From an archaeon (GTDB lineage Archaea > Micrarchaeota > Micrarchaeia > CAILAH01), in assembly GCA_024274875.1 (NCBI GenBank), contig JAJSAH010000009.1:8303-72302 (forward strand): a stretch of DNA of 64,000 nucleotides. The letters run 5' to 3'. Within the stretch, counting starts at the first letter, position 1; every line of letters starts with the position of its first letter. Made by a program: the position numbers and the translations under genes. Of the stretch, positions 5,268 through 62,200 are shown piece by piece. Below the pieces are notes generated by a model. That model was given only the letters and a program-made list of their open reading frames with translations. It did not search any database and was not told where the DNA came from.

Positions 5268-5271
5268 ATTA

Positions 5272-6342: not shown

Positions 6343-6362
6343 TTTAATGCTGAGTTTGGGTT

Positions 6363-7442: not shown

Positions 7443-7446
7443 GAGA

Positions 7447-9144: not shown

Positions 9145-9194
9145 GCAACTAATTCAATAAGCACATATATAAATTTTATACAAGATAGTGCTTT

Positions 9195-10610: not shown

Positions 10611-10611
10611 A

Positions 10612-11418: not shown

Positions 11419-11430
11419 CGATTTTTGATT

Positions 11431-28212: not shown

Positions 28213-31200
28213 ATGAAATCATACAAGCTTCGAAAGTTTATCATCACCATTGCTGCCGTGCAGCTTATGCACTCCGCTCCTGCAAAAAGCAGTGCAGAAA
28301 GTATAAAAAGAATAGGCAATAACATATTAGTGGAGGATATCATGGTTGCGCAGGCAATAAAATCCAAGGAAGAGCGAGAGAGGGAAAAAATCCTAAACAG
28401 AATCGCAACGGTTGCAGTCCGCCTTGACCAATTAGGTTATACTGGACTCAAAAAAGATGAAGATTACATGAAAAGTAGGTATCTTGGCAAAACCAAATAT
28501 AAGTGGCTGTTTAGCAATGAAAAACTTCTGCCGGATAAACTGCGCAATCTGCTAAAAACGTTCGATAAGAATAAGAATTGGCTTGGGCTGAAAATGTTGT
28601 TTTTGTATGCTGCGACAAGAGATATGAGCGCGCAGGAGATAAAAAAATATGCAAATAGCATGCAAAAACATGTAAATGAGGCAGAACAGCGCATAAAACA
28701 AAGAAAAAGGGTAAGAGTAGAAGTGCCAAAAAGAAAAACAACTGATAATGATGCGCTCATAAAAAAACTGCTTGATGAAAGGTTTGCTCCTACTGAGAGA
28801 GAAATAAGTGCGCTGAACAAAGTAAGCGCCGAGGAGATTATGAGCGTTGCAGAGGAGGAGCAGAATATAATGCGCAAGCGCATGATGTTTGCGCTGGCAG
28901 ATTATGTAAAAGATGGAAATAAGCTTGGGGAAGTTAATGCTAAGCTTTTCTACCGTGCGGCAATACTGGTCTATAAAGGTGAAAAATGCTACTTATTTGG
29001 TCTCAATAGTGAGTTTGATGCATTGGATACCTACATAAAAACAAACTACGATAAATTAAGCGAATCTGAAAAAAAGCTGTTTGCGGCATACTTATATTAT
29101 AATGTGCGACATTCGTTGGAGGATTTCCAAAAAATATTTCCAAAAAAGAGCAAAACAAATATTGATTATTTCAGAGGAGTTATGGCAAATTTGAAAGATA
29201 TATACGCGCAGTTCAGCCGCATTTCATACTTAGATGATGAAAAAACCATCGAACAGAGATTGCAGTTCATCGAAAAAAGGATAAGGAAGATGTTTGGGAA
29301 AAATGTTTCTGCAATAACTGTGCTTAAAACAAGAATAGATTTTGAGAGCATGAATAACCTGTTTCCAGATGAAATGAAGGCAGATTACAGCATGAAAAGG
29401 CAATCGTTTGAGGATTTGGTCAGGACTGCTTCAATGGAGATTGGAGAGGAGCAATTGGCGGATTATGAAGCGAGCAAGCTGAAGGGCGTGCAGCCTCCTC
29501 AACTCACAAATGAAGAGCAGGCTCTCCTCAACTCATTCCTGTCCAACGCAACATATATGGATGCATACCTGCTCGGAGATTTCTGGAATAAGTGCGCCTT
29601 TAAAGATCCATACACTGCAAGAACCGTGCTGAGAACATTGCTTGCGATCTACAAAACTGATCCTTATTTAGTGCAACATGCGGCTAAATATGTTCTCCCA
29701 ACATTAAGCAGAGTGAGCAACGATGAATCAGAGTTTGTTAGGTTGCTTGCAGGGTTTGGCGCAGAGTTTTCAAGGAGGGCTTCGCCGTCAAGAGACCTCT
29801 CTTCTCTGTTCCAGCGCAGATATTATATCGAGAAGTTTAGGGAGATTAGTAAAAAACTTCCGAAAGTGTTGGGTTTTGATTATAGGGATCTCTCATTTGA
29901 TTTATGGGAAAGGCCTGGCGGTTATGAGCATCCTGATTACTACAATGTAAAAAAATCTAGGGTTATTCCTGAGGAAAGAAAATCTATTCCTGAGTATACA
30001 AGCATGCGCAGATATAATCTCAGTTTATATCCATACAGAGTTCCGCTGCTTGACCCAGGAAGATTGCATCTTAATCAAGATGTTCTAAGCATGATGCATC
30101 CGGAAGCTAAAGAAGTGTATTCATACGCAAACAATCTGTTCAATCCAGAGATGAGAGCATTTAGAGCAGGCGTTCCAAACCCATATAAAATACGCAGGTA
30201 TAATCCGGATAGAATTTACAAAAAGATGATGAGGATTTTTGCAGATTTTCCGGGCGTTGCATATTCGGGCGAGCTCACATCGGGAAATGCTGTTGGAGGA
30301 GCATATGCAAATGAAGAGTTGTGGGAATTGGGGGCGCGCGGCGCTATAGCAACTACCTCTGGAGGCGCCAGCAGTGAAGTCATCGGGGGCAAAATTTCAG
30401 GGAGGGGAGAGGTTCGAGGACGCGCGGATGCCTCGATGATTCCAATCTCAGGACCTGTGCAAGTCCACAAAGCGTCCATGAAAGGCAATTGGAGAGAGGA
30501 GGAATATGTTGAAGGTGCGCTGCAATCTTTTATACAAGTTGCAAAGGAACAGCGAAAAGATATGTTAGTTTATGTATATGGATATGACAGGCTGCCTGAA
30601 GAAAAAGGAAAGTTTAGAGAAAGGTTGTATTATGTTGATAAGGAGGGCAATTATGTGCAGATTGCAGCAGGGCAGGATGATTACAGCAGGGTTTACAATT
30701 ACGCCTTCGGTGAGGCAGATTATAGCCCTATTCTGCTCAGCGCAAAAGCTCAGCACGATTTGCATGATGAGTATGCATTCAACGGAGGCGCGCTCGGATT
30801 TGATGTGAAGGATTATGTATCTATGTTCGGAATAGCAAATCTTCCAAAAGGCATACCAAAAGAAAAGTATGAAAAAGCTGAATTTGGGGTAGGGGCTGGA
30901 GTAAAGGTTTCGAAAACGCCGGATATAATTGTTGCCAATTTCAGAGGGTTCATCCCTAATGAAGAAAGCCGTGCAAAAGGGATATATGTAGGTGAATTAC
31001 AGTGGCTCAGAATACCTAAAGATGAGCGCGCATACGCGCACATTGCGAGAGCAGTAGGGGGCGTTGGCACAGTAGGGGGGGAGTACAGAGTTGAATGGAC
31101 GGGTGAGAGGAAGTATGGGGTAGGAGCGTCTGGTGGTTTGGAAACAAAAAACATTATCCAAAACTTCCCGCAACTTGATGAAGATGCGAGCGAATACGCA

Positions 31201-32337
31201 AGGAGCGTTAAAGAAATTCTTGTGAATGTTTACCATTGGTCTGAGGATGCGGCTGAAAAGCAGGGATGGTTTATTGCAGGCATGTACATCTACTCCAAAC
31301 TCTATAACCTCGTTGATAACGCAGATGATAAGGAGATTGCGAAGCATTATGCGCAGGCAATATTCATGTACTGGTCTGACAAACACCAGATTTTGGTAGG
31401 CGGTGAAAAAATGCCGCACTGGAACAGCGTGCGCAATGAAATTGATGCAGCTGTCAGGAATGCAGAAATGTACCCTGGCCGTGCGGATGAATATTACCAA
31501 CGCGCGTATGACAACATAAAAAACATTATGGAAAAAGATGACCTGTGGAGGTTCAGCATCGGATGGGGTTGGGACGGCAAAGTATATGTGGCAGGCACAT
31601 TCAAAAGCGATGAGTATGCAAACCTCCGCGGCATAATAGCGATAAATGAAGATATGCTTATAGATATGTATGGGCAGGCATACGTATATTTTGGAGAAAG
31701 ATTCATCGATGCTTTTGGAGGAGTAGTGTGGAGAGATATAGGGGAGATTATAAGTTTGAGAGCAGATCTCGGACCAACCTTTTCAATTGATGGAGATTAT
31801 TCAGGCATGTCTGGCAGAGGGCTAGTGAGGTTTGCAAAGGATAATCTTGCATTGATATTGGGCGGCATGGGCGGATACAAAGACCTTAAGACCGCAAAGC
31901 TTGATCAGTGGCAGATAGTGCTCACAGGAAATGTGAAGAACATCGATGAGGGAAAATTAAGCGAACACACATTCTATGTTGGAGTTAATGTCGCCAATAA
32001 GGAAGCTGTGATTGTTGATGAAAGCGAATGGGAGATGTGGAGAGCAAAGGCCGGGTATGAATGGAGCATGATGGAAATAGATGATTCTGGAATACATATA
32101 TTTGCCGATGCATCTGTTGGGAGGATCAATAACATAAGCGAAGGAAGAAATGATTGGATAGCCACAGGCCAGTTTGGGTTTAGGTTGGAGGATTATTTAA
32201 GCATAGCGATGTTCGGAGGGTTCAATCCACCAGTGGGGATTGGAGATGTGAATATGTGGTGGCCTAATTATGTGGGAAGAATCCCGTTCTCAATGGATAG
32301 CTGGTTTATTGGACTGAAAATAAGCGGAACATTTTAA
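28213..32337 (+). CDS. Giant secreted protein of unknown function (1374 aa)
   Basis: The signal peptide is Sec-like: MKSYKLRKFIITIAAVQLMHSAPA. The N-terminal half is K/E-rich and helical. The C-terminal half is Gly- and aromatic-rich with alternating-polarity segments and ends ...WFIGLKISGTF. No internal TM helix or known catalytic motif was recognised. Confidence 0.7.
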   Translation: MKSYKLRKFIITIAAVQLMHSAPAKSSAESIKRIGNNILVEDIMVAQAIKSKEEREREKILNRIATVAVRLDQLGYTGLKKDEDYMKSRYLGKTKYKWLFSNEKLLPDKLRNLLKTFDKNKNWLGLKMLFLYAATRDMSAQEIKKYANSMQKHVNEAEQRIKQRKRVRVEVPKRKTTDNDALIKKLLDERFAPTEREISALNKVSAEEIMSVAEEEQNIMRKRMMFALADYVKDGNKLGEVNAKLFYRAAILVYKGEKCYLFGLNSEFDALDTYIKTNYDKLSESEKKLFAAYLYYNVRHSLEDFQKIFPKKSKTNIDYFRGVMANLKDIYAQFSRISYLDDEKTIEQRLQFIEKRIRKMFGKNVSAITVLKTRIDFESMNNLFPDEMKADYSMKRQSFEDLVRTASMEIGEEQLADYEASKLKGVQPPQLTNEEQALLNSFLSNATYMDAYLLGDFWNKCAFKDPYTARTVLRTLLAIYKTDPYLVQHAAKYVLPTLSRVSNDESEFVRLLAGFGAEFSRRASPSRDLSSLFQRRYYIEKFREISKKLPKVLGFDYRDLSFDLWERPGGYEHPDYYNVKKSRVIPEERKSIPEYTSMRRYNLSLYPYRVPLLDPGRLHLNQDVLSMMHPEAKEVYSYANNLFNPEMRAFRAGVPNPYKIRRYNPDRIYKKMMRIFADFPGVAYSGELTSGNAVGGAYANEELWELGARGAIATTSGGASSEVIGGKISGRGEVRGRADASMIPISGPVQVHKASMKGNWREEEYVEGALQSFIQVAKEQRKDMLVYVYGYDRLPEEKGKFRERLYYVDKEGNYVQIAAGQDDYSRVYNYAFGEADYSPILLSAKAQHDLHDEYAFNGGALGFDVKDYVSMFGIANLPKGIPKEKYEKAEFGVGAGVKVSKTPDIIVANFRGFIPNEESRAKGIYVGELQWLRIPKDERAYAHIARAVGGVGTVGGEYRVEWTGERKYGVGASGGLETKNIIQNFPQLDEDASEYARSVKEILVNVYHWSEDAAEKQGWFIAGMYIYSKLYNLVDNADDKEIAKHYAQAIFMYWSDKHQILVGGEKMPHWNSVRNEIDAAVRNAEMYPGRADEYYQRAYDNIKNIMEKDDLWRFSIGWGWDGKVYVAGTFKSDEYANLRGIIAINEDMLIDMYGQAYVYFGERFIDAFGGVVWRDIGEIISLRADLGPTFSIDGDYSGMSGRGLVRFAKDNLALILGGMGGYKDLKTAKLDQWQIVLTGNVKNIDEGKLSEHTFYVGVNVANKEAVIVDESEWEMWRAKAGYEWSMMEIDDSGIHIFADASVGRINNISEGRNDWIATGQFGFRLEDYLSIAMFGGFNPPVGIGDVNMWWPNYVGRIPFSMDSWFIGLKISGTF

Positions 32338-40347: not shown

Positions 40348-43104
40348 ATGAGCAACAAATTATATAAAAGTGGAATCGAGCATTTGTTTATAAAATTCAT
40401 ATATGATTCTTATACTATGGGCGGGCTGTATGCGCAGAAGATAAAGGCGGTTGTATACACGCTGGAAAAGAACGAGAATTTTTTGAGAGCCCTGCTCATA
40501 TACATCGCCACATTATCAGTTCTCCTGGCATTTCCCACTTTTCCATTCCTTGCAGTGCCTTTTATCGCGCTCATACCAGCGATTGCCGGCTATTCGCATC
40601 CTGCATTGGGAACAATATTGAGCGTGCTTATCGCAAACATAGCTGTTGCATACCAATCACCCGTGTTGGGATGGATATTTACAGTTGCGCTGAGCATAAC
40701 TTTGGTCGCATCATTCAAGCACTGGTACATAATTTCACTCTTAGAATTGCTAATATTTGCGCCGTTCGCAAAGGGAATTGGGCCGTTTGGGGGCATCATC
40801 ATCCCAGTGATGTTCATATCTGCGTTAAGGCTTGGAGCGAAGAAGAGCCTTATGATAACTTTGCCTGCAGTATACTTGGTGCTCCTGCTGACAGCAATAT
40901 GGGGAGTTGATAACACTGCGTTCCTCAGCGTCAGCCATCCATATTATGAAGGAATGCGCGGTGCCGTTCCTGAGAAATTGCTTGTTCCATCAAAACCTCC
41001 TGCATCAATATTCAACATTGCAGGTGTGATAGGGAAGGCGATTGGAGGGATGTTCAGCGGGGAGGCGCTAATATACATAAACTCTTTGCTTGGATTGACC
41101 GGAAATGCAACGATTACGTTGTTATTTGGAGATGTAGGCCTCATTGAGATTTTATGCGTTGGAATGCTCATGTACGCAGCCTCTTACCTCCCTGGAATTA
41201 TAAGGAATAAGTACGAACAAACAATCTCTTCGTTCGTGTTTTGGCTGTTTATTCCACTCCACTATGCATTTGCAATGCTCACAGGCAATCAATTCAACCC
41301 TTCAATAATTGCGTATGCAGTAGGCACGACTATGCTTATGTACTATCTCGACCTAAAAAAAGTATACATAGCTGGGCAGACGGCCTCTATACTAAGGGAG
41401 AAGGAAAAAAAGTTCGCAAAATTTGGCATACAGGATTTGGGTTTGGCATCGGCAACCAAGCTAAAGGATATTGGAAACTACGAAGATGTTAAAAAAGAGC
41501 TTAAAACAGCAATATTAATGCCTTTAAGAAGAAAAGATATCAGCCTAGCATACGGGATAAAACCCCCTAAGGGAATTTTGCTGTTTGGTCCTCCTGGCAC
41601 TGGAAAAACACTTCTTATGCGCGCATTTGCAAATGAGATGGAGATTGGTTTTTACTATGTTAAGGCATCGCAGCTTTTGTCCCAATATTTTGGTGAATCA
41701 GAAAAGAATGTGAGCAAAATATTTGAGATTGCTCGCAAGAATGCGCCTGCAGTATTGTTTTTTGATGAGATAGACGCGATAGGAAAAAGCAGGGAATATT
41801 CAAGAGGCGATGAAGCGGCTGCGAGAGTGCTGAGCACGCTGCTTGAAGAGATGGATGGATTGAAATCAGATAGCAATGTTCTTGTAGTTGGCGCAACAAA
41901 CCTGCCTCAAGTTCTTGATAAAGCATTGATGAGGCCTGGAAGATTTGATAAGATTGTTTACATGCATCTTCCTGACTTAAAGGGGAGATTGAAGATATTG
42001 AAAATACACATTAAAGGCATGCCCCTTGCTGATGATGTTAACCTTGAAAAAATTGCCAAAAAGCTCGAAAGATACTCAGGTGCAGACATAGCTAATTTGT
42101 GCAAGGAGGTTAAGAGGATTGCTGCAAAAACCGCGATGGAGAGAGAGGAGATTGTGCCAATAACTATGGATGATTTTGAGAATGTCATCAGCAGACTGAA
42201 ACCGAGCACTACAATTTCAATGTTGGATGATTACGAAAGGTTTAGGCTCGATTATGAGCGAAGGATTGGCGAAGAGAAGCAGAAAGTAAAGCGCATAACC
42301 TGGAATGATGTGATTGGGCTTGATGAAGTTCGGAGCATGCTTAAAGAGGCCATAGAGATTCCGCTATTGCATTCCGAATTGCTCGAAAAATATGATGTCA
42401 AGCCAAGCAAGGGGATTTTGATGTTCGGACCGCCCGGATGCGGGAAAACGCTCATCGTTAAAGCAGCCGCAAACGAACTTAACGTTAATGTGATGAGCGT
42501 GAGCGGCGCAGAACTGCTTAAAAGAGGGTATGAGGGGGCTGTCGCAGTAATTAAGGAAACATTCAACAGAGCGAGGGAGAATGCGCCCGCAGTTGTGTTT
42601 ATTGATGAAATTGAGAGCATCGCCCCAAGCAGGGAGTTGTACAGTTCAAAGTATGTTGAAGATGTGGTGACGCAGCTTCTTCAAGAGATGGATGGTATGA
42701 AAGAACTTAAAGGAGTGCTGCTCATCGGCGCCACAAACAAACCTGAAATGTTGGACAAAGCGTTGCTAAGGCCCGGCAGATTGGACAAAATTGTGTTTGT
42801 CCCGCCTCCTTTAAAACCACAACGAGCCAAAATGTTTAAGTTATTCCTTAAGAAAGTGCCAAAAGAATCAGTTGATTATGATACGCTTGCGGAAGCAAGC
42901 GAGGGTTTCACTGGTGCGGATATAAACAGCGTATGCCAAGAAGCAAAATTCATGCTCGTGAGGAAAAGCATTGCTGGAAAAAAGAATGTCAAATTGGAAA
43001 CTGATGATATACTGAAAGTGATACGGAGAAGAAAACCTTCGCTCACCATGGATATGTTAAGAAAATATAAACGATTCCTTGATGAGTATGGTGAAAGGAT
43101 TTGA
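40348..43104 (+). CDS. Membrane-anchored Cdc48/VCP-type double AAA+ ATPase
   Basis: About 350 aa of polytopic hydrophobic N-terminal domain is followed by two AAA modules. D1 has GPPGTGKT, FFDEIDA and pore loop YFG. D2 has GPPGCGKT and FIDEIES. SRH-like segments are VGATN.P..LD.A..RPGR.D. Confidence 0.85.
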   Translation: MSNKLYKSGIEHLFIKFIYDSYTMGGLYAQKIKAVVYTLEKNENFLRALLIYIATLSVLLAFPTFPFLAVPFIALIPAIAGYSHPALGTILSVLIANIAVAYQSPVLGWIFTVALSITLVASFKHWYIISLLELLIFAPFAKGIGPFGGIIIPVMFISALRLGAKKSLMITLPAVYLVLLLTAIWGVDNTAFLSVSHPYYEGMRGAVPEKLLVPSKPPASIFNIAGVIGKAIGGMFSGEALIYINSLLGLTGNATITLLFGDVGLIEILCVGMLMYAASYLPGIIRNKYEQTISSFVFWLFIPLHYAFAMLTGNQFNPSIIAYAVGTTMLMYYLDLKKVYIAGQTASILREKEKKFAKFGIQDLGLASATKLKDIGNYEDVKKELKTAILMPLRRKDISLAYGIKPPKGILLFGPPGTGKTLLMRAFANEMEIGFYYVKASQLLSQYFGESEKNVSKIFEIARKNAPAVLFFDEIDAIGKSREYSRGDEAAARVLSTLLEEMDGLKSDSNVLVVGATNLPQVLDKALMRPGRFDKIVYMHLPDLKGRLKILKIHIKGMPLADDVNLEKIAKKLERYSGADIANLCKEVKRIAAKTAMEREEIVPITMDDFENVISRLKPSTTISMLDDYERFRLDYERRIGEEKQKVKRITWNDVIGLDEVRSMLKEAIEIPLLHSELLEKYDVKPSKGILMFGPPGCGKTLIVKAAANELNVNVMSVSGAELLKRGYEGAVAVIKETFNRARENAPAVVFIDEIESIAPSRELYSSKYVEDVVTQLLQEMDGMKELKGVLLIGATNKPEMLDKALLRPGRLDKIVFVPPPLKPQRAKMFKLFLKKVPKESVDYDTLAEASEGFTGADINSVCQEAKFMLVRKSIAGKKNVKLETDDILKVIRRRKPSLTMDMLRKYKRFLDEYGERI

Positions 43105-43105
43105 G

Positions 43106-44572
43106 TTATCTGCGGCTTTTACGTATGAGTAGGGACCTTACTTTCATCTTCGCATCTATGCTCTGGCACTGATTGAGCAGAGAGCGAAGTATGTTTTCGG
43201 ATATCTTTTTCTTCGGTCCAGTCTTAATTTCATAAGTAGCGCCGTCTTTAACTAAATCAAAGAAGGAGAATTTTCTTCCAGATGTTGCAGAGCTAACTGA
43301 AATCACTTTTGTAGGGTCGACAACGCTGCATACCATATCAAATATGCGGGATTCGGCAGGAAGCTCAATCTCTTTAACTGATTTCCTGCGCACAACCTTA
43401 ACTTTCATTCTGTCTGACCTTATGGCAAATGACATCGATTCAATATCATCAGTGCTGGCGTCTTTCAGAAAATCGCTGAACCTTGAAACAAGAAGCAATT
43501 TATCCTTATTAATTTTCCTGGGTTTGAACAGCGCGTGCGCCCAATCTCCTTTCTCGCATCTCTCAAGCATCTTTCTGGTCTTTATTTGAACCTCAATATA
43601 AATGCCGTTGTACGGAATATCCACATGAATGGATTGGTATCCTGTTTCTCCCCTTGGGTTTTTTATGTAATCGTCCACATCATCATCTGTTAGGCCAAAC
43701 TTCTCCTTGATCATCTCAGCAATGAAATACGCCTCATCAACTGATTCAGTCACAAGCATAAATGCAACGATATCATGAAGCTTCCTTATGTCTTCGGGGC
43801 TCATTTCCCTTGAAACAAGCTTCAATGTTATGCTTCCGGGCGTTTTAATCCTGCTTCTGCAACACGGATCAACCCTTATTCCATGAAGAGAGATGGCTTC
43901 ATTTACTATATCACTGAGCTCCTGGCTGAATGCTCTTTCGTTCTCCATTATTTTATCGTTCAGCGCGCTAAGCTCCTCCAACACCTTTGAATGCAGCTTT
44001 GGATAAAGAACTTTGGATGAATAATCGCGCAGCTTGTTCATTACAGAATTGAGACCAAGCATATCAGCGAACGGCGTGTAAACATAGAGCATTGACTGCG
44101 CAAGATTGTATATCTGTTCATCAGGTCTATGTTTGTTAATGAGAAAATTATTGATCAGCACGCGCTTATCTTCAGGAAGATGCGAAAGATCAACCGTGCG
44201 GAACACTGCGAGAGGAACATTAGTTGATAATATTGAATAATCCTTCCATTGCTCTTTTTTCGACATATCTAAATGCTTCAAATGCATGAATTCCTCAAAC
44301 AACTTTCCAATTTTAGCGCGTATATCATCGGGAAGCATCTTGCTGGACCTGAAATCTTCATGGTATAATGCTAAACGAAGAAGATCGTAAGGGTCAACAT
44401 TAAACATTCCATTATCGTTACTGTCGTTCATTCCAGATGCAAGTTTTAAAAATAAGGATACATTATGCGAAATTATTGTATCAGACACATCTTTCTTTCT
44501 AAGCCATTCGACTGCTTTTTCTTTCATGCGCTTAAGCATCCCGTGCTTTGTCAATGCTTTTTTATATGTCAT
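43106..44572 (-). CDS. RelA/SpoT-homolog-like protein: degenerate HD-like N-terminus, alarmone-synthetase-like nucleotidyltransferase domain and a TGS-like C-terminus
   Basis: Synthetase-like motifs are RIKTPGSITLKL (RxKxxxSxxxK), HDIVAFMLV, and GYQSIHVDI...IYIEVQIKTRKM....GDWAHALFK (GYxSxH...E.QI.T....A..G.AAH..YK). The N-terminus has LLRLALYHEDF where LLHDxxED is usual. The C-terminus resembles TGS, ending DGATYEIKT. Confidence 0.65.
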   Translation of the reverse strand: MTYKKALTKHGMLKRMKEKAVEWLRKKDVSDTIISHNVSLFLKLASGMNDSNDNGMFNVDPYDLLRLALYHEDFRSSKMLPDDIRAKIGKLFEEFMHLKHLDMSKKEQWKDYSILSTNVPLAVFRTVDLSHLPEDKRVLINNFLINKHRPDEQIYNLAQSMLYVYTPFADMLGLNSVMNKLRDYSSKVLYPKLHSKVLEELSALNDKIMENERAFSQELSDIVNEAISLHGIRVDPCCRSRIKTPGSITLKLVSREMSPEDIRKLHDIVAFMLVTESVDEAYFIAEMIKEKFGLTDDDVDDYIKNPRGETGYQSIHVDIPYNGIYIEVQIKTRKMLERCEKGDWAHALFKPRKINKDKLLLVSRFSDFLKDASTDDIESMSFAIRSDRMKVKVVRRKSVKEIELPAESRIFDMVCSVVDPTKVISVSSATSGRKFSFFDLVKDGATYEIKTGPKKKISENILRSLLNQCQSIDAKMKVRSLLIRKSRR

Positions 44573-44585
44573 GATTGATTATATG

Positions 44586-44607
44586 AAAACATATTTAAAT
44601 ATGTTTT
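44586..44607. promoter_or_regulatory. Perfect 22-bp palindrome with a central TATA-like core, in a 49-bp divergent intergenic region
   Basis: AAAACATATTTAAATATGTTTT equals its own reverse complement. Its centre lies about 24-26 nt from both divergent start codons (44572 on the minus strand, 44622 on the plus strand). Confidence 0.6.
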
Positions 44608-44621
44608 GATTAATAACTCTC

Positions 44622-45293
44622 GTGGAATTAAAGTTCATATATGGGGAACCATTGGCAGTGTGGAAAGATTATTTGATCGCAGCGGATCTGCATATAGGAA
44701 AAAGGGGGCTCCCTGATTGGAATGCGCACTCGAAAGTAATTGAAAGAGTAATGGATACTGAGGGGATTTGCAAGCTAATCATCGCAGGAGATATAAAACA
44801 TAAGATTGGCGGCACCGATGGAAAGGTAGGCAAATTTATAAGAGAAATCGGCTCAAAGTATGAATTGCACATAGTAAAAGGCAATCATGATGGTGGGCTG
44901 AATAAATACGCGCAATACGCCAAAATTTATGGGGCTGATGGCGCAGTTTTTGATGGGCTTGGGGTTTTTCACGGGCATGCGTGGCCTTCTAAGGAAGTTT
45001 TGGAGCAGAAAGTTGCAATAATGGGGCATCTTCATCCGCACGCATGCATTGATGATGAAAATGCAGGTTTTGAAAAAGCATACATAATCGGGGAACTGTC
45101 AGCAGATAAACTTAGCAAGAGATATAAGCGCAAATTTAATAGAAATGCAAAAATTGCAGTCATGCCTTCATTCTCAGAGCCATACGCACGCGGCAACACA
45201 TGCTTCGAACGGCTCTCCCCTGTGATGAAAAGAGATATATTTATAAAAACGACAGCTCAAATATATCTGCTTAATGGCATCAGGATTAAGTAG
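44622..45293 (+). CDS. Calcineurin-like metallophosphoesterase (archaeal SbcD/Mre11-related small phosphoesterase type)
   Basis: The motifs ADLHIG, AGDIKH, GNHD, FHGH and MGHLHP occur in canonical order. The start codon is GTG. Confidence 0.75.
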   Translation: MELKFIYGEPLAVWKDYLIAADLHIGKRGLPDWNAHSKVIERVMDTEGICKLIIAGDIKHKIGGTDGKVGKFIREIGSKYELHIVKGNHDGGLNKYAQYAKIYGADGAVFDGLGVFHGHAWPSKEVLEQKVAIMGHLHPHACIDDENAGFEKAYIIGELSADKLSKRYKRKFNRNAKIAVMPSFSEPYARGNTCFERLSPVMKRDIFIKTTAQIYLLNGIRIK

Positions 45294-45305
45294 GAGGTTT
45301 GTGAG

Positions 45306-45545
45306 ATGGGTAAGAAAGGCAGAGGAAGAGACACTTCAGTAACTTGTTCTGCATGCGGTCGAAGCGTGCTGCGCAGCAAAGCTGTGCAGGACAATAGGAG
45401 AGTGAGGTATTCGACTGAGCTGCGCACGGGAGATGACGTAACTTATACTGAGATGAGAAAGGTATACTACTGCATAAGCTGTGCAAAGCACAGGAAGATT
45501 TTTGAGAAAAAAAAGAAAAGGTTTCTTAGCAAATATAATCGATGA
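45306..45545 (+). CDS. rps26e: 30S ribosomal protein S26e
   Basis: KKGRGR..V.C..CGR.V...KAV and YYCISCAKHRKI resemble the eS26 pattern (KGRGH...C..C...VPKDKA...YCVSCAIH). A strong AGGAGGT precedes the ATG. Confidence 0.7.
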   Translation: MGKKGRGRDTSVTCSACGRSVLRSKAVQDNRRVRYSTELRTGDDVTYTEMRKVYYCISCAKHRKIFEKKKKRFLSKYNR

Positions 45546-46414
45546 GCGCAGGAGCCATAGAGAGCATTTTTAGATTTTCGCTGTTTTTTATTGGCGCGGC
45601 AGCGGTTCAGCACATTCTCATGCAGAAAATGTACAGGGCGTTGTTCGTAAAACTGAAAAATGCAGGCATAATAGGGGGCATGTTCAGCCGGCCTGCGGTG
45701 ATTGCGCATGAGTTAGTGGGCCATCTCATTCCAGCTATGTTGAGCGGAAGCAGAATAATCGATGTTGAGTTGAGGGAAGAAAGAGGCCATGTTGGAGTGA
45801 AATATGCAAAAAACCTGTTTGGAATGATTTCTGTGACAATTTCAGCGTTCGGACCTGCATTCTTCCTTCCTTTGTTGTTTATAGCGTTGTATGCATACCT
45901 TAATGCATACGATATTAGTTTGTATCTCACGTCTGGGGACCTCTCCAATAAAATATTTGGATTGATTTCAGATGTGTCAAGGCTTGATGAAATAAAAGAT
46001 ATAATTGTCCTGTATGCAGCAGTTGCGATTGCGCCAAGCGCAGCATCGAGCACAGGAGATATAAAAATGTTCATCTCATTCGTAAAAAACAACAAAGGTC
46101 TTGCAATAATCTGGGCAAGCGTTTGGCTCATCGTGTTCTACATAAGCTATGCGTTGGGGACGCATGCCACAGACATTGGAGCAGCAATAATCATAAACTC
46201 TTTTGCGCATTACATTTTCATGTATGCGATATCCTTTGCGGTGTTGTTTGCCATAGTTAGAGGATGGGAAAAACATGCGCTTATGGAAGGCGTTGCTGCA
46301 ATGATATGCTTTCCAGCAGCAGTAAAATTCATATTCCCATCTTTTGAATATCCTCTTATTATAGGGTTGCTTGCATCTGATTTAGTTGTGCTTGCGCTTA
46401 AAAATAAAAAATAA
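45542..46414 (+). CDS. Polytopic membrane protein with an HExxH motif (putative zincin-like membrane metallopeptidase)
   Basis: AHELVGHLIP lies near the first hydrophobic segments. About 6 further TM helices follow. Confidence 0.5.
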   Translation: MSAGAIESIFRFSLFFIGAAAVQHILMQKMYRALFVKLKNAGIIGGMFSRPAVIAHELVGHLIPAMLSGSRIIDVELREERGHVGVKYAKNLFGMISVTISAFGPAFFLPLLFIALYAYLNAYDISLYLTSGDLSNKIFGLISDVSRLDEIKDIIVLYAAVAIAPSAASSTGDIKMFISFVKNNKGLAIIWASVWLIVFYISYALGTHATDIGAAIIINSFAHYIFMYAISFAVLFAIVRGWEKHALMEGVAAMICFPAAVKFIFPSFEYPLIIGLLASDLVVLALKNKK

Positions 46415-46755
46415 TGCAGGCATATACTATTATGGATATGTTCAAAATCTTCAAGAGGGTTGTGAAAAGGCTGGTTGAGAAAAGCGGTCGAATACGGGAT
46501 AAAGTGGCTGACATACCCTCATCTTTCCTGGTTCATTTTGCAAGATTGAAGCAAAAAGACGAACAAAAGTTTGAGAGTTATCTTATAGCAAGCGTTGATG
46601 AAGAAGATAGGGATGATGCTGCTGCAAACGCATCGCAGTTGGTTGAGTATGTTGATGAGATACAGAAAAAAGGGAGGAACAGGAACAAAATTTCAAGAAA
46701 GGGCAGGAGAATGGGAAGAGCAAGAAAAGGCGCTAAGCGAAAAGCAGTCAGGTGA
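46414..46755 (+). CDS. Hypothetical protein with an Arg/Lys-rich C-terminal tail
   Basis: The ORF is translationally coupled to the upstream gene (TAATG). I recognise no family. Confidence 0.4.
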   Translation: MQAYTIMDMFKIFKRVVKRLVEKSGRIRDKVADIPSSFLVHFARLKQKDEQKFESYLIASVDEEDRDDAAANASQLVEYVDEIQKKGRNRNKISRKGRRMGRARKGAKRKAVR

Positions 46756-47203
46756 TGTAAACGCTTGCTGTGATTTTAGAGAGTTTGCCATCGTAGGAAA
46801 CTATGCGCTCCGCTGACACAATTTTTGATGGATTTGCGGGCTCATCGCCGCATGTTGCAAGGATATTTCCATCTTTATCCGAAATAGAAATAAAGTAATT
46901 GTGAATGAGACCTACCTTATCTATATCTATATTGCACCCCTGGGCAAATTTTTGTTCATTTACGCTGTATCCATCCTCATCTAAGAGTTCTCCGGGCAAC
47001 ATAAGGTTGTCGAGCGCTCTGTTTGCTTCTGCAACCAGGTCTGCATCTTCCGTACCTGCAGAACTGCTCAATGCAGACCAATATGTTAGCAGTATGCCCA
47101 TGGCTATCAGAAATATGATTGCGCCTCCAAGCGCATCATATGAGAGCACCTGCCCCCTCTTACCTTTTACGTATTGTGATAACATTATCATCACCATATG
47201 CAC
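46748..47203 (-). CDS. Type IV pilin-like protein (class III signal peptide)
   Basis: ...KGKRGQ-VLSYDALGGAIIFLIAMGILLTYW has a basic leader, G then Q at +1, and a hydrophobic helix. Confidence 0.6.
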   Translation of the reverse strand: MHMVMIMLSQYVKGKRGQVLSYDALGGAIIFLIAMGILLTYWSALSSSAGTEDADLVAEANRALDNLMLPGELLDEDGYSVNEQKFAQGCNIDIDKVGLIHNYFISISDKDGNILATCGDEPANPSKIVSAERIVSYDGKLSKITASVYIT

Positions 47204-47591
47204 CTTGCGTTATAGATACATATTCATATGACCCTACCTTTAAATAATAGAAGATGCTGTTTCCATTTACAGTTGTGTTTCCCTGCACAACTCCTCTTAA
47301 CTCATCGCCCTCTATTGTTATGCCTGATCCTTTCACGACAACAGGCAAAGTCACATTCACTTCCATGTTGTCAACATGCTGAGACAATAAGTTTGCATCG
47401 CGCACATTTTCAGCAACATAAATTAACATCGATTTGAATCTCTGCTGGGAACGCTCAGAGAACTCGCCGCTTGAATGCATGAAAATAAATGATGAAAACG
47501 ATGCAGCAATCATCAGAAAAAATGCAAAATAAGTGAGATATTCTATCGATGTCTGTCCCTTGCATCCTTTAAACAAATTCCTTGCGCACAT
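47160..47591 (-). CDS. Type IV pilin-like protein (class III signal peptide)
   Basis: With the start at the internal ATG, the N-terminus is MCARNLFKGCKGQ-TSIEYLTYFAFFLMIAASF, with Q at +1 and E at +5. Confidence 0.6.
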   Translation of the reverse strand: MCARNLFKGCKGQTSIEYLTYFAFFLMIAASFSSFIFMHSSGEFSERSQQRFKSMLIYVAENVRDANLLSQHVDNMEVNVTLPVVVKGSGITIEGDELRGVVQGNTTVNGNSIFYYLKVGSYEYVSITQGAYGDDNVITIRKR

Positions 47592-47997
47592 GAACTTTTC
47601 CCCCCATATTTTCGAAAACGAATGAATAGGTTCCCCCGCTTGGAAGATCGATCTCTGCATACTCAAACATTGCCGGCCCCATCCTTACCACATCTGACTC
47701 TAAATTGCCGTATTTTACAAATATGGAAACAGATGTTCCATTGAGCGTGATCTTCTGCGCATGCTTGGGCAGGACTATAAGCCTGCTTATTTTAGTGCCT
47801 TCTGATTGAACGCCAACCATCGCCCCATACTTTATGAACTCGTTGCACGCAGCTTCTGCTTGCGAAAGGCTTGCATAATACTCTTTCTGCGGCGCAGAAA
47901 CATAGAAATACATAAACACTGGAACGGTTAAGAGCAGGAACATTGCGACAACTGCAAGAAATTCAACTGCTGGCTGGCCTCTCCTCATATCAATCAA
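47569..47997 (-). CDS. Type IV pilin-like protein (class III signal peptide)
   Basis: MIDMRRGQ-PAVEFLAVVAMFLLLTVPVF has Q at +1 and E at +5. Confidence 0.65.
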   Translation of the reverse strand: MIDMRRGQPAVEFLAVVAMFLLLTVPVFMYFYVSAPQKEYYASLSQAEAACNEFIKYGAMVGVQSEGTKISRLIVLPKHAQKITLNGTSVSIFVKYGNLESDVVRMGPAMFEYAEIDLPSGGTYSFVFENMGGKVHVRKEFV

Positions 47998-49516
47998 CCC
48001 TTATCTCATCCATTCCGTAATCGCCCGCTCGCCCATCGCTTATCCTAAACTTTCCTATAACCATTTCTTCTTCATCTATGCGGTTTCCATCTATCACAAG
48101 CGGGTCGTTGCACATGCCCATCGTTATGCAACCCGGCATGCCCATAATTTTATCTCCAGGAATGTTCCTGTAATACTCATTAGCTACTCTCGAACGAGGC
48201 TGTCTTGCCCATTCGCCAACTGCGAATGTTTCCAAGCCAAGCAAGCCATCGTTAGCATTAAGGTTTCCCTCAAGCCTGCTTAGAATGCTTGGTCCGGAAT
48301 GCATTGCAAAATAATTTGCGCATAAGACTGCTGCGCGCTGGTCCTCAATATTGTATATCACGGCATCTTCACGCGTTGGTGGATATTCTTCCGTAGTTTC
48401 AAACTCCCTAAGCAAATTGGAAATTAGAACTTTGTCTCCTGAGCTTACGGAATGCGAAGTGATTTTAACAAATGGAACATTGGGCTGCGTTCCTTGGCCG
48501 TTGTAGGCATGCACCTTCCCCCTAACTTCTTCATATGTGTCAAACATGGAACCCCAATTAACCGAACTGCACCCCTGTGGGCTTACTATGTAATACCTTC
48601 CGCAATATATGCATGGAGATCGCTCAACCCAAGTTTCAATCTCATAGTTGCATGTTGAACCGTCCTCAGCGATTATTGTCCCAGAACTGGATGAATATTC
48701 GCTGTTATCCTCGCCCTCTAGAATAACCCCTCTAAACCTTCCAAGTTTGCTTCTCCACGCGTCGAGCTCATCGCCTTTAACAAGCAGGATTTTATTAAAC
48801 CACGCATTTTCACCTAACGCATCGGCGCGGCTTGCGCTGACAACCTCTCCGTATGCCCAACCTCTCCCGTATTTTCCATTAGCGACGATATCAACATCTT
48901 CAAGCTCAGCAACCGGAATTGAAGAGTTTATTATGGGTCTCAGCACTGGGGCGCACTCTGATGGGTTAGGAAGCGAAGAGCATTGCTTGGACGACTCAAC
49001 CGCAAGCATAGGGTCGTACACGCCCTGCACGCTGAATATTACCTCCCTGCTCAACGATTTGCTCACTTTCACGCCGTTTCCAAATGCGGATATATCTGTA
49101 CTTACAGATAACTTTGCGTCATACGGTCCAACAAGCTCCAACTGGCATGTAGGGTCTGTGTATGACAATTCAAGCCCCATATCTGACGCGCGGAGAGCAA
49201 CCGAATTTAAGTATGCAACAAACTTTTGCGTGAATTTGCCGCAAATCTCTTCGTCAGCGTCAGTTTGCAAATATTCACCATTGTTTATCACTTCCATATC
49301 AACATCGTGCAACGACCTCTTAGCGAGTTGAGATAATGAATAGTTAAATGCAGGAGAATCAAGGTCTGAAAACAATGATGAAAGCGCGCGCATGCGCGCA
49401 TGCGAAGAGCGTGTTTTTTCCTCTATACTAACTCTCTGCGATTCTATGCTCAGTATGAGCGCCAGGAAAAATATGAGAACAAGCATCGATAATGTGAGCG
49501 CAAATCCCTTCTTCAT
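47990..49516 (-). CDS. Large pilin-like or pilus-associated protein (508 aa) with a prepilin-type N-terminus
   Basis: MKKGF-ALTLSMLVLIFFLALILS has a G-then-F junction. A large, presumably extracellular domain follows, with no motif I recognise. Confidence 0.55.
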   Translation of the reverse strand: MKKGFALTLSMLVLIFFLALILSIESQRVSIEEKTRSSHARMRALSSLFSDLDSPAFNYSLSQLAKRSLHDVDMEVINNGEYLQTDADEEICGKFTQKFVAYLNSVALRASDMGLELSYTDPTCQLELVGPYDAKLSVSTDISAFGNGVKVSKSLSREVIFSVQGVYDPMLAVESSKQCSSLPNPSECAPVLRPIINSSIPVAELEDVDIVANGKYGRGWAYGEVVSASRADALGENAWFNKILLVKGDELDAWRSKLGRFRGVILEGEDNSEYSSSSGTIIAEDGSTCNYEIETWVERSPCIYCGRYYIVSPQGCSSVNWGSMFDTYEEVRGKVHAYNGQGTQPNVPFVKITSHSVSSGDKVLISNLLREFETTEEYPPTREDAVIYNIEDQRAAVLCANYFAMHSGPSILSRLEGNLNANDGLLGLETFAVGEWARQPRSRVANEYYRNIPGDKIMGMPGCITMGMCNDPLVIDGNRIDEEEMVIGKFRISDGRAGDYGMDEIRVD

Positions 49517-50082
49517 ACTGACACCACCACTCTTACAAACGCATTTTCATACCCTGCACCTTCAACAGCAAATTCATCAGGAGAATACAAATCGCTCGGC
49601 AGCATGCACACATTGGCGCCTGCATTCAACCCCTCCCCTGGATCGCAGTAATCGCCATACTTGTATGGAGTTGTATAATGCTCGTTTTCAAGTATTACAG
49701 GAATGGTTGAAACAACAGATATGCTGCGCAACGCGCCATCCTTTTCGCGCGCGCACGATTCAAAACTCTTCCATTTTTCGCCATCAAAATATTGTATTTT
49801 TATACCATACTGGCTTGGAACCAAACTCATTATATCCTCGCACAGCGCAGGGTTTTCATTGAGCATATGCACCATAGGGACTTTTCTAACCGTGCCATCA
49901 CCTGCATTATAATCAACGGGCTTTTGCAAGAGCACATTCATTATGCTTCGGCCATATGAATACAGCGCTTCATCCTGAAGGTATGAATAATCGCGTGAGT
50001 ATTGATTCAGCATGCTCACAAACGCAACAACAATTAAGAGCGAAATAAATGCGTCAAGCATGAATACGAAGCCGCGTCGCAT
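49513..50082 (-). CDS. Pilin-like protein with a prepilin-type N-terminus (first gene of the cluster)
   Basis: MRRGF-VFMLDAFISLLIVVAFVSML is the N-terminus. Its stop overlaps the next gene start by 4 nt. Confidence 0.55.
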   Translation of the reverse strand: MRRGFVFMLDAFISLLIVVAFVSMLNQYSRDYSYLQDEALYSYGRSIMNVLLQKPVDYNAGDGTVRKVPMVHMLNENPALCEDIMSLVPSQYGIKIQYFDGEKWKSFESCAREKDGALRSISVVSTIPVILENEHYTTPYKYGDYCDPGEGLNAGANVCMLPSDLYSPDEFAVEGAGYENAFVRVVVSV

Positions 50083-59264: not shown

Positions 59265-62200
59265 TTAATTGAGCAACCACGCCTTTATTCGCAAATATAT
59301 TATTGCAATCTTGTCGTTGAATGATTCAACATTTCCTTGGTTGAAAACATTCACTGAACTGCCAGATGCTGTGTAGTCAAGAGACTGCGAAGTCACATTA
59401 AGGCTGGTGTTTGCAACCTTTGCATCATTAACATAAACCTCTAAGCTTACATTGTATGGGCCCAACTCAGATGGAACGCCATTCCCGCCAGTGGGTATGA
59501 ATGTTATATAAGCTGAGCCCGCACTTGAAGTGTTTGCTTCGCCAACAGCATAATTGGATACATTGCTGTCTATGTTCTGCGGAAGCGCAAACGGAGGTAT
59601 GCCGTTCTTCTCAATTAAATAAACTTTTGCATTGGATATTGGCGCGCCAGTATTGTGGTCTCTTACCGTGATATTGACGCCATACGGCTTTCCAGAAATC
59701 AATGGATAATCCGCGCCAACCACTGTTCCGTTATCGTATGCAGTAATCTCAAACTTCTCGCCACCTCCCAACAGCAACCATTCCTTAACTCTTAGGTATA
59801 CTTTGGCAACTAAATCGTTGAAGTATTCTATATTGCCTCTGCTTGAAACCTGGGGAGTTGTGCCGTCATCATATGGGAGATCTCTTAATGTAACGGACAT
59901 TGATTTGTTGGCTTTTAACCGCGCGCCGTCATACGCGCGAACGGTTATGTTATAGATCCCTACCTTGCTTTCATCAATCTCAGACGCACCTGTTGGAACA
60001 ATGGTTAATGATACATTGCCAAACGCATCAGCAGTGGCATTTGCATAAACATAATTGCTTACATTTGTGTCTATGTACTGTGGCAGGCTGAACGGCAAGT
60101 ATCCGTTCTCCTCATATATGCGCACATTCGCATCGCCAACTGGGCTTCCGTTAATATACATTACATTAACGGTAACATTGTATGGTTCTCCTGAATTCTG
60201 CAATGTTGTTGTTTCAACACCATTCACGAAAATTGTGAGATCCCAGTCAGGATATAAGTATATGTAAATGTTTACAGGACCGCTGTCACCGCCCGGATTT
60301 ACAGTTGGAATAACCAGCGACTCGTTGTAGCCGGAGTACCTGACAGTTGAGTTGCGCGCTTCAAAATCGTATGGATTGAAGTAAACTACTGATGTATCAT
60401 TGAGCGTTATATTCTCATACACTGCAAAACCTTCGATTTCATCGTAAGGATTATCATAATTACCGCTTGCGTTTGTGTTGATCGTTGATAATGGAGTGAG
60501 CATGAATAAATCGTATGCGCCCGTACCTCCTGTACTGTTTGCAACTTCAACCGTGCTTGGTATGGCTTTCGTTATATCTGTTGAGTTTAATGTGTGCACC
60601 TGCGTAATCCACATGTATGCAACCTTGCCAAAACTATTGTTTTCAACTTCAGAAATGTTCAACACTGCATTGGGAGAGCTTTCAAGCACTATGCCATATT
60701 TGCTGTTGTTGGCTGCAATATTATTATCCAAAAATGTAAAGTTGGAATATACGGATATCACACCCGCAATTGCCGCATTGGTGAAGTTGTTTTCATTAAA
60801 CAAGATGTTTCCAGAGCGAAGCATAATGATGCCATATGTATCGGAACCCGTAAAGTTATTGAACTCATAAACTGCGTTCGTGCAGTTAACAGACATCACT
60901 TTCTTATCTAAAAGAATGTTCTGAGAAATGTTTATGAGCCTGCTCGAATTCAAAATATCTATAACGCTTTCCCCAACGGAATAAATTGTATTGTTGGTTA
61001 TGTTCGCGCCGCTCTCAGTATTCAGCTTCACGCCGTTGGCCGAAACATTGTATATCTCGGAATTCAGCAATTCAAATGAGCTGTTGCGCGCAAATATGCC
61101 TGAACTGTCTATTGAGAATAACTTCAATAAATCGAGAGTGATTGCTGTTGAATTAATCATCTCTATTCCAACGCGCGAAGTATTGTGCACGGATGAGTTA
61201 TACACCACTGAAGCATTCGCTTCAGATAAGAGAATGCCGTTGGCTGAAAAATTGTATATATCGCAACCCTTTATAGTTATATTATACCTCGCGCTCATAG
61301 TCAAACCATACTGCTCTGTTTTTGTTTTGTTGCCCGTAACATTGTAACCTCTGCAATCAAGCGTCACATTATCTGCACCGAACCCGATGCAGTTATAATT
61401 ATTAGTGTAATTGTATATGTCGTTGTTTAAGCATACATATCTATTGGGCGTATCTACAGCAACATCGCATTCGCCGCACGATGAGCAATACACTTGGCAT
61501 ACGCCACTCAGCACCGCATAGCCGCTGAATGATGAAACACCGAATTTTAGCGAGGTTGCAGAAGAGCACTCCTTCGCCAAAGTGCTATACACTGATCCGC
61601 CCGAAAGTATCTCATCCCTCGTCTGCGGGAAGCCAGACAATCTATAAACTGTATATGTGCTTGGGTCGGTGCACGAATCCACTGAAACAGTTATGTTCGC
61701 TGATTTGTTGAACTGAGTTGCGTTTGCATCGCTGTCGTTCAAAGAAACAAAGGTTGAATTCAATATTATGTTTGATTGAGACTGCAACTTTGCATATGTT
61801 GTGTTGGCAAAATCAAATGTTATGCAACCAACATCAGAAGAATTATAGCACAGCGTGAAATTCGTGAAATTATTGTAAGAGCCTGCCGGCCAGGTATCGT
61901 CATAATAGTAGACATAATATGTTGCGTTTCGCACAAACGAACCTGAAAATGTGTTGTTCGTTGAACGGCCATTCCCATCATCAGAAGTGTAGTTGAAGTA
62001 TATGCCATAATCGACATCATTGATGCGCAAATCAGAGAATGTGTTGTTGGAGCTGTTTACCTCTAAATACAATCCAACTGTTGCATTGTATATTGTTAAA
62101 TTGGTGAATGCAGATGAGTTTGCATCAGACAAGTATGCGCCATAGGTTGAGCCGAATATCGTCGCATTAGCAATATGGCTTCTGTATGGAACCTGCATAA

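Follow-up and report, generated by a model that had tools for sequence, protein, structure and literature searches.

Does a small, symbiotic archaeon of the Micrarchaeota encode a genuine long RelA/SpoT homolog (RSH), and if so, what would such a protein make and how would it be controlled? The question is raised by a stretch of 64,000 nucleotides (positions 8,303 to 72,302 of contig JAJSAH010000009.1, assembly GCA_024274875.1), called the window below. In it a preliminary description had singled out a minus-strand open reading frame (ORF) of 488 amino acids (aa) with an alarmone-synthetase signature and, divergent from it, a metallophosphoesterase (MPE) gene. Both ORFs were found at exactly the positions given there, as a divergent pair 49 bp apart, and every motif quoted was located in the translation of the RSH gene, namely R241-I-K243-TPG-S247-ITL-K251, HD267IVAFMLV and G311YQSIH316, and likewise E327VQIKT, G342DWAHALFK350 and LALYH71E72DF. 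Sequence comparison and predicted structure together identify the 488-aa ORF as a genuine RSH homolog, co-linear with the bacterial long RSHs and missing their C-terminal ribosome-binding half. The host is an archaeon, since profile scans of the ORFs in the window found an archaeal gene content (S26e, S6e, eIF2-gamma, MCM, ATP-dependent DNA ligase, TrmB) and since the public genomes whose contigs are syntenic with it carry the label Candidatus Micrarchaeota or Candidatus Micrarchaeia.

The Pfam RelA_SpoT profile (PF04607) matched the 488-aa protein above its cut-off (69.3 bits against 27, E=4.4e-19), with aa 240-351 aligned to positions 1-110 of the 113 in the profile. The NCBIfam model TIGR00691 (spoT_relA) aligned over a longer range (aa 152-486, E=3.4e-34) at 118.2 bits, a score far under its trusted cut-off of 499.2. 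A single-sequence search against the PDB returned Rel and RelA chains, the best being E. coli RelA (E=2.9e-14). A family profile built from 11 sequences extended these matches to E=2.9e-54 for B. subtilis Rel (6yxa; positions 57-490 to residues 64-485) and E=2.5e-50 for E. coli RelA, and hhalign, with the four closest homologs set against 20 long RSHs, gave a probability of 99.9 over aa 155-497 to 163-485, TGS included. In Foldseek the PDB entries most similar to the AlphaFold2 model of the protein (pLDDT 89, pTM 0.84) were full-length structures of Rel, RelA and SpoT, with 6yxa at the top over 511 columns, while Rel structures of the N-terminal domains only were matched over about 350 columns with TM up to 0.77. 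The pseudo-hydrolase, synthetase and TGS-like layout proposed in the preliminary description is backed by the hhalign, family-profile and Foldseek comparisons.

The HD_4 and TGS profiles of Pfam, which had been suggested as companions to the RelA_SpoT search, behaved differently, and neither matched at E<=1 with the whole 488-aa protein or with its isolated N- and C-terminal thirds. The HD and TGS-like domains were visible solely through profile-profile comparison, family-profile search and structure prediction with Foldseek. In the model the chain is helical to residue ~230, as an HD fold followed by a central helix bundle, and then enters the alpha/beta synthetase core. Residues 387-451 form a beta-beta-alpha-beta-beta unit of TGS-like beta-grasp topology, which is followed by two terminal helices. 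The gene and its predicted segments are as follows.

43106..44572 (-): RSH-family gene, 488 aa, ATG start; divergent, C-terminally truncated long-RSH homolog (pseudo-HD, SYNTH, TGS-like).
44138..44572 (-): degenerate HD (hydrolase-like) domain, aa 1-145, all-alpha; placed by MAFFT against 39 long RSHs; family-profile matches to Rel HD domains start at 45-57.
43877..44137 (-): helical linker or central helix bundle, aa 146-232; 'AxxMLYVYxPxADxLG' aligned to 'IAxETLxIYAPLAxRLG' of long RSHs.
43517..43876 (-): SYNTH (RelA_SpoT) domain, aa 233-352; Pfam match at aa 240-351.
43217..43417 (-): TGS-like beta-grasp, aa 386-452; from hhalign and hmmsearch to the Rel/RelA TGS and from model topology.
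43106..43216 (-): C-terminal helices, aa 453-488 plus the stop codon; model helices 459-468 and 472-487, the start of the post-TGS helical region.

The protein ends about 35 aa past the TGS-like domain, and the alignments extend no further than residue ~485 in Rel (a chain of 562 aa) and ~499 in RelA (744 aa). The ZFD/RIS and ACT/RRM domains are absent from the 488-aa protein, and Pfam ACT gave no match to it.

The alarmone-synthetase signature stands in the correct order, as claimed earlier, and its core is intact across the family. Eight residues (R241, K243, K251, D267, Y312, H316, E327, Q329) were invariant in the 11 aligned family sequences, while S247 was Ser or Ala and R307 was Arg or Lys. 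In the synthetase core R241, K243 and K251 serve triphosphate binding and D267 and E327 serve Mg2+ binding and catalysis, while Y312 and H316 lie in the G-loop. The family is 33-42% identical to the query overall, and SYNTH was its best-conserved segment, with a mean pairwise identity of 45% as against 25-39% in the other segments. Because this segment is the most conserved and its catalytic residues are invariant, selection appears to act on catalysis. At the positions of the RXKD motif of Rel and SpoT all family members carry an acidic xxDD (D300-D301), resembling the EXDD type of RelA; the meaning of the two motif types is taken from PMC3153485.

The domains on either side of the synthetase are degenerate. 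In the MAFFT alignment with 39 long RSHs, which is tentative in its N-terminal part, H36, H71-E72 and D135 fell on the metal ligands H53, H77-D78 and D144 of RelSeq. HE in place of the hydrolase HD motif, as already pointed out in the preliminary description, is present in LALYH71E72DF. The downstream ED catalytic pair is lost as well, reading R, K or S followed by S or D in the family, and the RxSGEPY motif is absent. Within the family H36 and H71 were invariant, E72 was missing in two members (P0123 and P0124) and D135 was Gln in P0123. From these residues we class the N-terminal domain as a pseudo-hydrolase.

The TGS-like C-terminus that had been proposed holds for position and fold, since the beta-grasp topology fits TGS and the profile alignments run through the TGS domains of Rel and RelA, but the Pfam TGS profile was unmatched and the conserved residues are replaced. 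The TPxG, DFA and Trp of the TGS consensus are all changed, as is its invariant His (here V418), which was kept in the other 39 sequences; in B. subtilis Rel and E. coli RelA the same column falls on the Ile-His of the TGS domain. RelA and Rel require the TGS His to sense the CCA end of tRNA, and in RelA it is TGS His432, together with the C-terminal domains, that recognises deacylated tRNA on the ribosome.

An exhaustive profile search over 1.84 billion cluster representatives returned only 10 at E<=1e-30, after which the score fell from 242 to 121 bits and ordinary long RSHs began. A word-indexed search found three close homologs (37-40% identity), one of which is recorded by NCBI as a 'hypothetical protein' of Candidatus Micrarchaeia. 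Two species, both Micrarchaeota, were matched in a GTDB scan of one genome per species, a lower bound because the scan used two narrow peptide patterns able to miss divergent members (P0122-P0125). A metagenome scan with a generic EVQIRT pattern yielded only ordinary long RSHs (23-31% identity) and no added family loci. Every family member that could be placed belongs to the Micrarchaeia (DPANN), a taxonomy that rests on the NCBI or GTDB labels of four contigs together with synteny.

In a neighbour-joining (NJ) tree with 200 bootstrap replicates, a rough distance tree, the family came out on a long branch as a clade of its own with 100% support, and none of the groupings that would give it a sister was supported. 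Its best grouping (36% bootstrap), to which long-branch attraction may contribute, was with two three-domain RSHs of ~480-490 aa. Four RelA-type sequences (P0088, P0080, P0094, P0104) clustered away from it. The RSH gene is a long resident and not a recent mobile or defence insertion, because an intact ORF occupies a fixed place in core-gene synteny in at least seven lineages and the GC content of the gene equals that of its surroundings. From the tree and the GC content we read it as a bacterial-type long RSH that was either acquired long ago or survives as a highly diverged relic, and its family looks to be a lineage-specific, fast-evolving descendant of such a protein.

The surroundings of the gene were compared in seven independent lineages (the window, L001/L009, L002/L003, L004, L006, L007/L008 and L015). 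The immediate neighbours in the window are these.

44622..45293 (+): metallophosphoesterase (MPE), 223 aa, GTG start; archaeal 'SbcD/Mre11-related' family, TIGR00024-like, PdeM/MPE-like.
44573..44621: divergent intergenic spacer, 49 bp between the RSH and MPE start codons.
40348..43104 (+): AAA neighbour, 918 aa, convergent with the RSH gene; from Pfam and synteny.

In all seven lineages, including that of the most divergent member (P0125), the MPE and RSH genes were adjacent and divergent and the AAA gene was convergent on the RSH gene, so that the pairing whose conservation had been put forward for checking is found throughout, within a syntenic block of at least 12 genes. On long contigs the collinear block runs from DNA ligase through five small pilin-like or unknown genes, a membrane protein, S26e, MPE, RSH and AAA to the phosphoglucomutase genes. 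The adjacency is not specific to the pair, because the entire block is syntenic and the pairing is no better kept than its surroundings. Between genomes the AAA ATPase was 71% identical, the ligase 68-72% and S26e 81-83%, as against 37-41% for RSH and MPE.

On the plus strand the MPE gene leads a string (44622-46755) that continues with S26e (45306-45545), a 290-aa membrane protein and a 113-aa protein. The 290-aa protein (45542-46414) is polytopic, without a Pfam match, and overlaps S26e by 4 bp, and the 113-aa protein, the last of the string (46414-46755), is rich in Lys and Arg. Since MPE heads a string with S26e, the RSH promoter region would be common to a ribosomal-protein transcript. 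The 49-bp spacer holds a near-perfect palindrome of 28 bp (44583-44610; inverted repeat I1, with 14-nt arms, 93% complementary and no gap) that is centred on TTTAAATA and lies 24-25 bp from both start codons. Homologous spacers (L001, L002, L004, L006, L007, L009) measure 46-52 bp and have a central A/T-rich, TATA-like element of the form (T)ATATAAAAA(T)GTTTT. The spacer would accordingly be a compact bidirectional archaeal promoter with leaderless mRNAs, of which the rightward one would include S26e. The position of the palindrome midway between the start codons, together with the central TATA-like element of the homologous spacers, suggests one symmetric TATA box for two leaderless transcripts.

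The AAA gene adjoins the RSH gene in every locus seen, is about 71% identical to its orthologs, and ends 1 bp from the RSH stop codon. Its 918-aa product has a multi-pass membrane N-terminus of ~370 aa and two Cdc48-type AAA domains. Strong PADLOC matches to IetA/TRIP13 look like generic AAA-domain matches. On the far side of the S26e string (46748-50082, minus strand), three proteins of 142-168 aa with hydrophobic, type-IV-pilin-like leaders stand beside a 508-aa and a 189-aa protein without Pfam matches. The order of this pilin-like cluster, between the S26e string and the DNA ligase, is conserved in related Micrarchaeia loci.

The preliminary description had correctly recognised the divergent neighbour as a calcineurin-type phosphoesterase, with Pfam Metallophos above its cut-off (24.8 bits against 21.5) and all binuclear metal motifs present. 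The residues of the DxH, GD, GNHD and GHxH motifs (H24, G56-D57, G87-N88-H89-D90, H117-G118-H119 and H136) were invariant in 42 homologs. Two NCBIfam models matched under their trusted cut-offs, TIGR00024 at 80.4 against 115.2 and TIGR04123 (PdeM) at 37.5 against 150. A single-sequence search of the PDB gave no match for the MPE, and the family profile and the AlphaFold2 model (pLDDT 90.7) were needed. With the model, Foldseek placed the P. putida nuclease MPE (6nvo) best (E=7e-9, TM 0.62-0.68), followed by Mre11/SbcD and LpxH, and the family profile also reached 6nvo (E=1.6e-15), aligning the GDxxH and GNHD motifs. The P. putida enzyme is a Mn-dependent endonuclease of single-stranded DNA for which His81 (GDxxH) and His113 (GNHD) are essential to nuclease activity (PMC7826289). 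Both align to His in the window MPE.

The P. putida MPE (PdeM), as the best match in fold and profile, shares the DxH, GDxxH, GNHD and GHxH motifs with the window MPE. They differ in overall sequence, the identity being ~15% and the PdeM profile score far from its cut-off, and in context, since the bacterial gene lies in an operon with Lhr, a ligase and an exonuclease whereas the window gene heads the S26e string with the DNA ligase ~5 kb off. The 435 detectable MPE homologs occur in Aenigmatarchaeota, Altiarchaeota, Euryarchaeota and others, and are commonly annotated 'SbcD/Mre11-related phosphoesterase'. In three distant archaeal loci that we read, no RSH lay near the MPE homolog; one homolog directly followed Mre11-Rad50, one was beside a HerA-like DUF87 ATPase and one had no informative neighbour. 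All close MPE orthologs on readable contigs have the RSH gene next door. The MPE fold differs from those of the known (p)ppGpp hydrolases, whether HD-type (SAH, Mesh1, SpoT) or Nudix (Ndx8, MutT, NudG). By sequence and model the MPE is best read as a nucleic-acid nuclease resident in archaea, unrelated to the RSH protein and merely sharing its promoter region.

Among the 42 ORFs scanned in the window, a fraction of the genome, none was a SAH (HD_4), Nudix or GppA protein. The sole other nucleotide pyrophosphohydrolase seen in the window was a 256-aa fusion of a cytidylyltransferase-like (NMNAT-type) domain with MazG (18487-19257, minus strand), which is a conceivable alternative candidate for alarmone degradation.

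The comparisons above establish that the protein is an RSH homolog with the domain order of long RSHs and conserved catalytic residues, and also where its family occurs and in which syntenic setting; from them we infer an activity, a product, a mode of regulation and a promoter function for this gene. The protein is probably a monofunctional, RelA-like nucleotide 3'-pyrophosphokinase that is not controlled by the bacterial starved-ribosome mechanism. It would transfer, in an Mg2+-dependent reaction, the beta-gamma pyrophosphate of a donor nucleoside triphosphate, probably ATP, to the 3'-OH of a purine nucleotide, with GDP or GTP as the default acceptor, to give (p)ppGpp as RelA does. Activation in the bacterial way, through deacylated tRNA in a stalled ribosome, would be closed to it, because it has lost the TGS residues, His included, and has no C-terminal domains for docking on the ribosome. 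More likely its transcription would be regulated at the compact bidirectional promoter that it has in common with the MPE-S26e string, or the pseudo-HD and TGS-like domains would autoinhibit the synthetase within the same molecule, or both.

Several observations weigh against this assignment. The residue five positions after the Mg2+ Asp (Asp+5) was Arg in every one of the 39 other long RSHs in the alignment, and is M272 here and Thr in most relatives, with a family-specific aromatic residue (F271) beside it. In SaRelP (R112, with D107; PMC5794853) and in FaRel2 (R95, with D90; PMC11782079) the Asp+5 Arg stacks against the adenine of ATP. In the G-loop the Asn is mostly Thr in the family, and seven of the 11 aligned members have an extra residue. 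Because the adenine-stacking Arg is lost and the G-loop changed, the donor and/or acceptor specificity, or the activity as such, may differ. The alignment behind the RSH model consisted mostly of long RSHs, so that the likeness in fold depends in part on the sequence evidence. Finally, neither a hydrolase partner nor a known alarmone target was identified in the 64-kb window.

The altered active site bears most directly on a rival that we consider possible, if clearly the minority view: an active pyrophosphokinase with non-canonical substrates, which would make (pp)pApp or another 3'-pyrophosphorylated product, use a donor other than ATP, or act on an RNA 3' end like toxSAS. The exchange of the adenine-stacking Arg for Thr or Met next to F271, the modified G-loop and the reading WAHALxK where long RSHs have AAHWxYK would all suit such an enzyme, as would the precedent of other RSH SYNTH domains, whose known acceptors include adenosine nucleotides and the CCA end of tRNA (PMC11782079). 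The acceptor-side residues Y312, H316, R/K307, E327 and Q329 are, however, retained as in (p)ppGpp synthetases, the nearest relatives in both sequence and structure are all (p)ppGpp-making long RSHs and not toxSAS, and PADLOC gave only a weak, generic SYNTH match (39.5 bits) with no antitoxin-like partner. The loss of a universally conserved donor-site Arg would also be expected of a catalytically dead or nearly dead protein kept for nucleotide binding or for scaffolding or regulation. Fast evolution (37-40% identity for RSH as against ~70% for the AAA ATPase and ligase between the same genomes) and the lack of any known archaeal (p)ppGpp point the same way, but the catalytic acids D267 and E327 and the basic residues R241, K243 and K251 are invariant and SYNTH is the most conserved region, a pattern not expected of a dead enzyme, and we regard this reading as quite unlikely. 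We hold it highly doubtful that the N-terminal domain is still a working hydrolase, which would make the protein bifunctional like Rel and SpoT. Its H...HE...D residues do fall on the four Rel metal ligands, two of them invariant, yet the ED pair and RxSGEPY are absent, E72 and D135 are not universal, and HD_4 was unmatched even at E=1 in a region where the alignment itself is of low confidence. A toxSAS/CapRel-like toxin or an anti-virus defence module is exceedingly improbable. The weak PADLOC match, to the candidate system PDC-S33, came through SYNTH, and we rejected this reading in view of the fixed place of the gene in housekeeping synteny across diverged genomes, a composition like that of the surroundings, the lack of a small antitoxin-like neighbour, and a three-domain architecture of the long-RSH and not the SAS type.

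The preliminary description had itself offered a further reading, in which the divergent MPE is the functional partner of the synthetase and degrades its alarmone, as the missing pyrophosphohydrolase, or processes a different product. Adjacency in all seven lineages, P0125 included, a common spacer of 46-52 bp with a single central TATA-like element, similarly fast rates of RSH and MPE (~40% identity) and the presence of RSH beside all close MPE orthologs on readable contigs speak for it. The idea is nevertheless unsupported, because synteny extends over the entire block, MPE homologs are widespread in archaea (435 detected) and stand without an adjacent RSH in the three loci read, and the closest solved relative is the P. 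putida single-stranded-DNA endonuclease, with both essential His residues aligned. No binuclear metallophosphoesterase is known to hydrolyse (p)ppGpp. We judge the MPE partnership very unlikely. A more far-reaching scenario, which we think unlikely, would have a clade of Micrarchaeia use an alarmone-type signal independent of ribosome and tRNA, with a rewired synthetase whose donor pocket is without the adenine-stacking Arg, a repurposed TGS and a turnover enzyme that is not an RSH, and with a product that is possibly not (p)ppGpp. Turnover would then fall, for example, to the MPE, co-regulated from the palindromic promoter, or to the MazG fusion. If true, this would be the first such pathway in Archaea.

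The gene is of interest for several reasons. It is archaeal and stably inherited, its catalytic core looks intact, and everything by which bacterial RelA and Rel respond to starved ribosomes is missing from it. At 488 aa it offers a compact, clonable candidate, simple to assay in vitro, for asking whether some archaea make alarmones and what a ribosome-uncoupled long RSH does, and the loss of the adenine-stacking Arg, peculiar to this family, amounts to a natural test of what the donor site requires. This interest is limited by the RelA/SpoT genes already on record in other DPANN phyla, by the confinement of the family to a few uncultured Micrarchaeia and by the ordinary explanation for the MPE pairing.

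The rarity of long RSHs in archaea, on which the preliminary description had drawn, agrees with the statement of Atkinson 2011 (PMC3153485) that archaea lack them, but has been outdated by a 2021 study of DPANN genomes (PMC8407392). That study reported RelA/SpoT genes, taken to have been acquired from bacteria, for four DPANN phyla: Diapherotrites (69% of genomes), Woesearchaeota (42%), Pacearchaeota (21%) and Nanoarchaeota (19%). Its list of phyla with RelA/SpoT does not include Micrarchaeota. For (p)ppGpp itself, the literature holds no finding in archaea. The Micrarchaeia gene is thus not the first archaeal long-type RSH; it is a new, strongly diverged and truncated RSH variant, unannotated in public records. 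We also encountered other RSH-like proteins in archaea, among them a type of ~630 aa with the label Nanoarchaeota and, at 471 aa, an Asgard 'hypothetical protein' (P0133, MHA1859554.1, Candidatus Asgardarchaeia archaeon), which matched the family profile at E=3.5e-25 over positions 92-434. Because of this Asgard match, RSH-like proteins may be scattered in archaea beyond present annotation. In four of the ~630-aa DPANN RSHs (P0009, P0020, P0023, P0031) the HD...ED motif is lost ('GILYG-I--E') while TGS and ACT are recognisable, and decay of the hydrolase may be recurrent in archaeal RSHs.

A number of other features were observed elsewhere in the window. A complete pyruvate/2-oxoacid dehydrogenase set (E1 alpha, E1 beta, E2, E3 and lipoate-protein ligase) is followed by a SUF operon for Fe-S assembly with SufS, SufD, SufC and SufB (5239-13535 and 14153-18173), with a DUF3326 protein (5239-6342) and a radical-SAM protein just upstream. 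The dehydrogenase and SUF genes fit an aerobic Micrarchaeota lifestyle. Two very large ORFs were found, a giant one of 1374 aa without a Pfam match (28213-32337, plus strand) and one of 1566 aa with repeated right-handed beta-helix/NosD regions (59265-63965, minus strand), the latter probably a surface protein. The 5' end of the window cuts a fragment of signal recognition particle (SRP) RNA (1-216, plus strand), whose best match was the bacterial large SRP model at 67.6 bits against a gathering score of 60, and truncation together with clan competition probably accounts for this bacterial-model match in an archaeal genome.

Among known systems, small alarmone synthetases (SAS) consist of a single SYNTH domain, and toxSAS (CapRel, FaRel and others) have in addition a neighbouring antitoxin or a fused pseudo-ZFD and occur in mobile or defence contexts; the archaeal protein, with its three domains and housekeeping synteny, is of neither kind. 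The bacterial three-domain RSHs of ~480-510 aa (such as P0078 and P0022) share its length and truncated architecture and are its weak nearest neighbours in the NJ tree (36%). They differ in their gene contexts (IF3, L35, SurA, ClpP), in matching Pfam HD_4 and TGS, and in keeping both the donor-site Arg and the TGS His. The RelA/SpoT proteins of other DPANN archaea (PMC8407392; for example P0009, 'Nanoarchaeota archaeon') are likewise of long-RSH type and presumed bacterial origin, several with a degenerate HD, but at ~630 aa they have recognisable HD_4, TGS and ACT and cluster apart from the Micrarchaeia family.

The bifunctional Rel proteins (B. subtilis 6yxa; RelSeq 1vj7) share the HD-SYNTH-TGS order end to end and the core synthetase residues, and provide the best structural match. 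The archaeal protein differs from them (identity ~19-25%) in having lost the hydrolase motifs, the donor-site Arg and the TGS residues, in reading xxDD for RXKD, and in missing the C-terminal AH/ZFD/ACT region of ~250 aa. E. coli RelA ([hS]; 5iqr, 5kpv), the best single-sequence PDB match, likewise combines a pseudo-hydrolase with an active-looking synthetase and an acidic EXDD-type motif. RelA is, however, a beta/gamma-proteobacterial paralog, and the rough NJ tree sets the Micrarchaeia family outside it as a separate, 100%-supported clade. Of a RelA-like character, the pseudo-hydrolase first proposed and the acidic xxDD stand and membership in the RelA clade does not. Because the ED pair and RxSGEPY are lost and D300-D301 is acidic in all members, the likeness to the RelA subfamily ([hS]) would be a functional resemblance and not a phylogenetic one.

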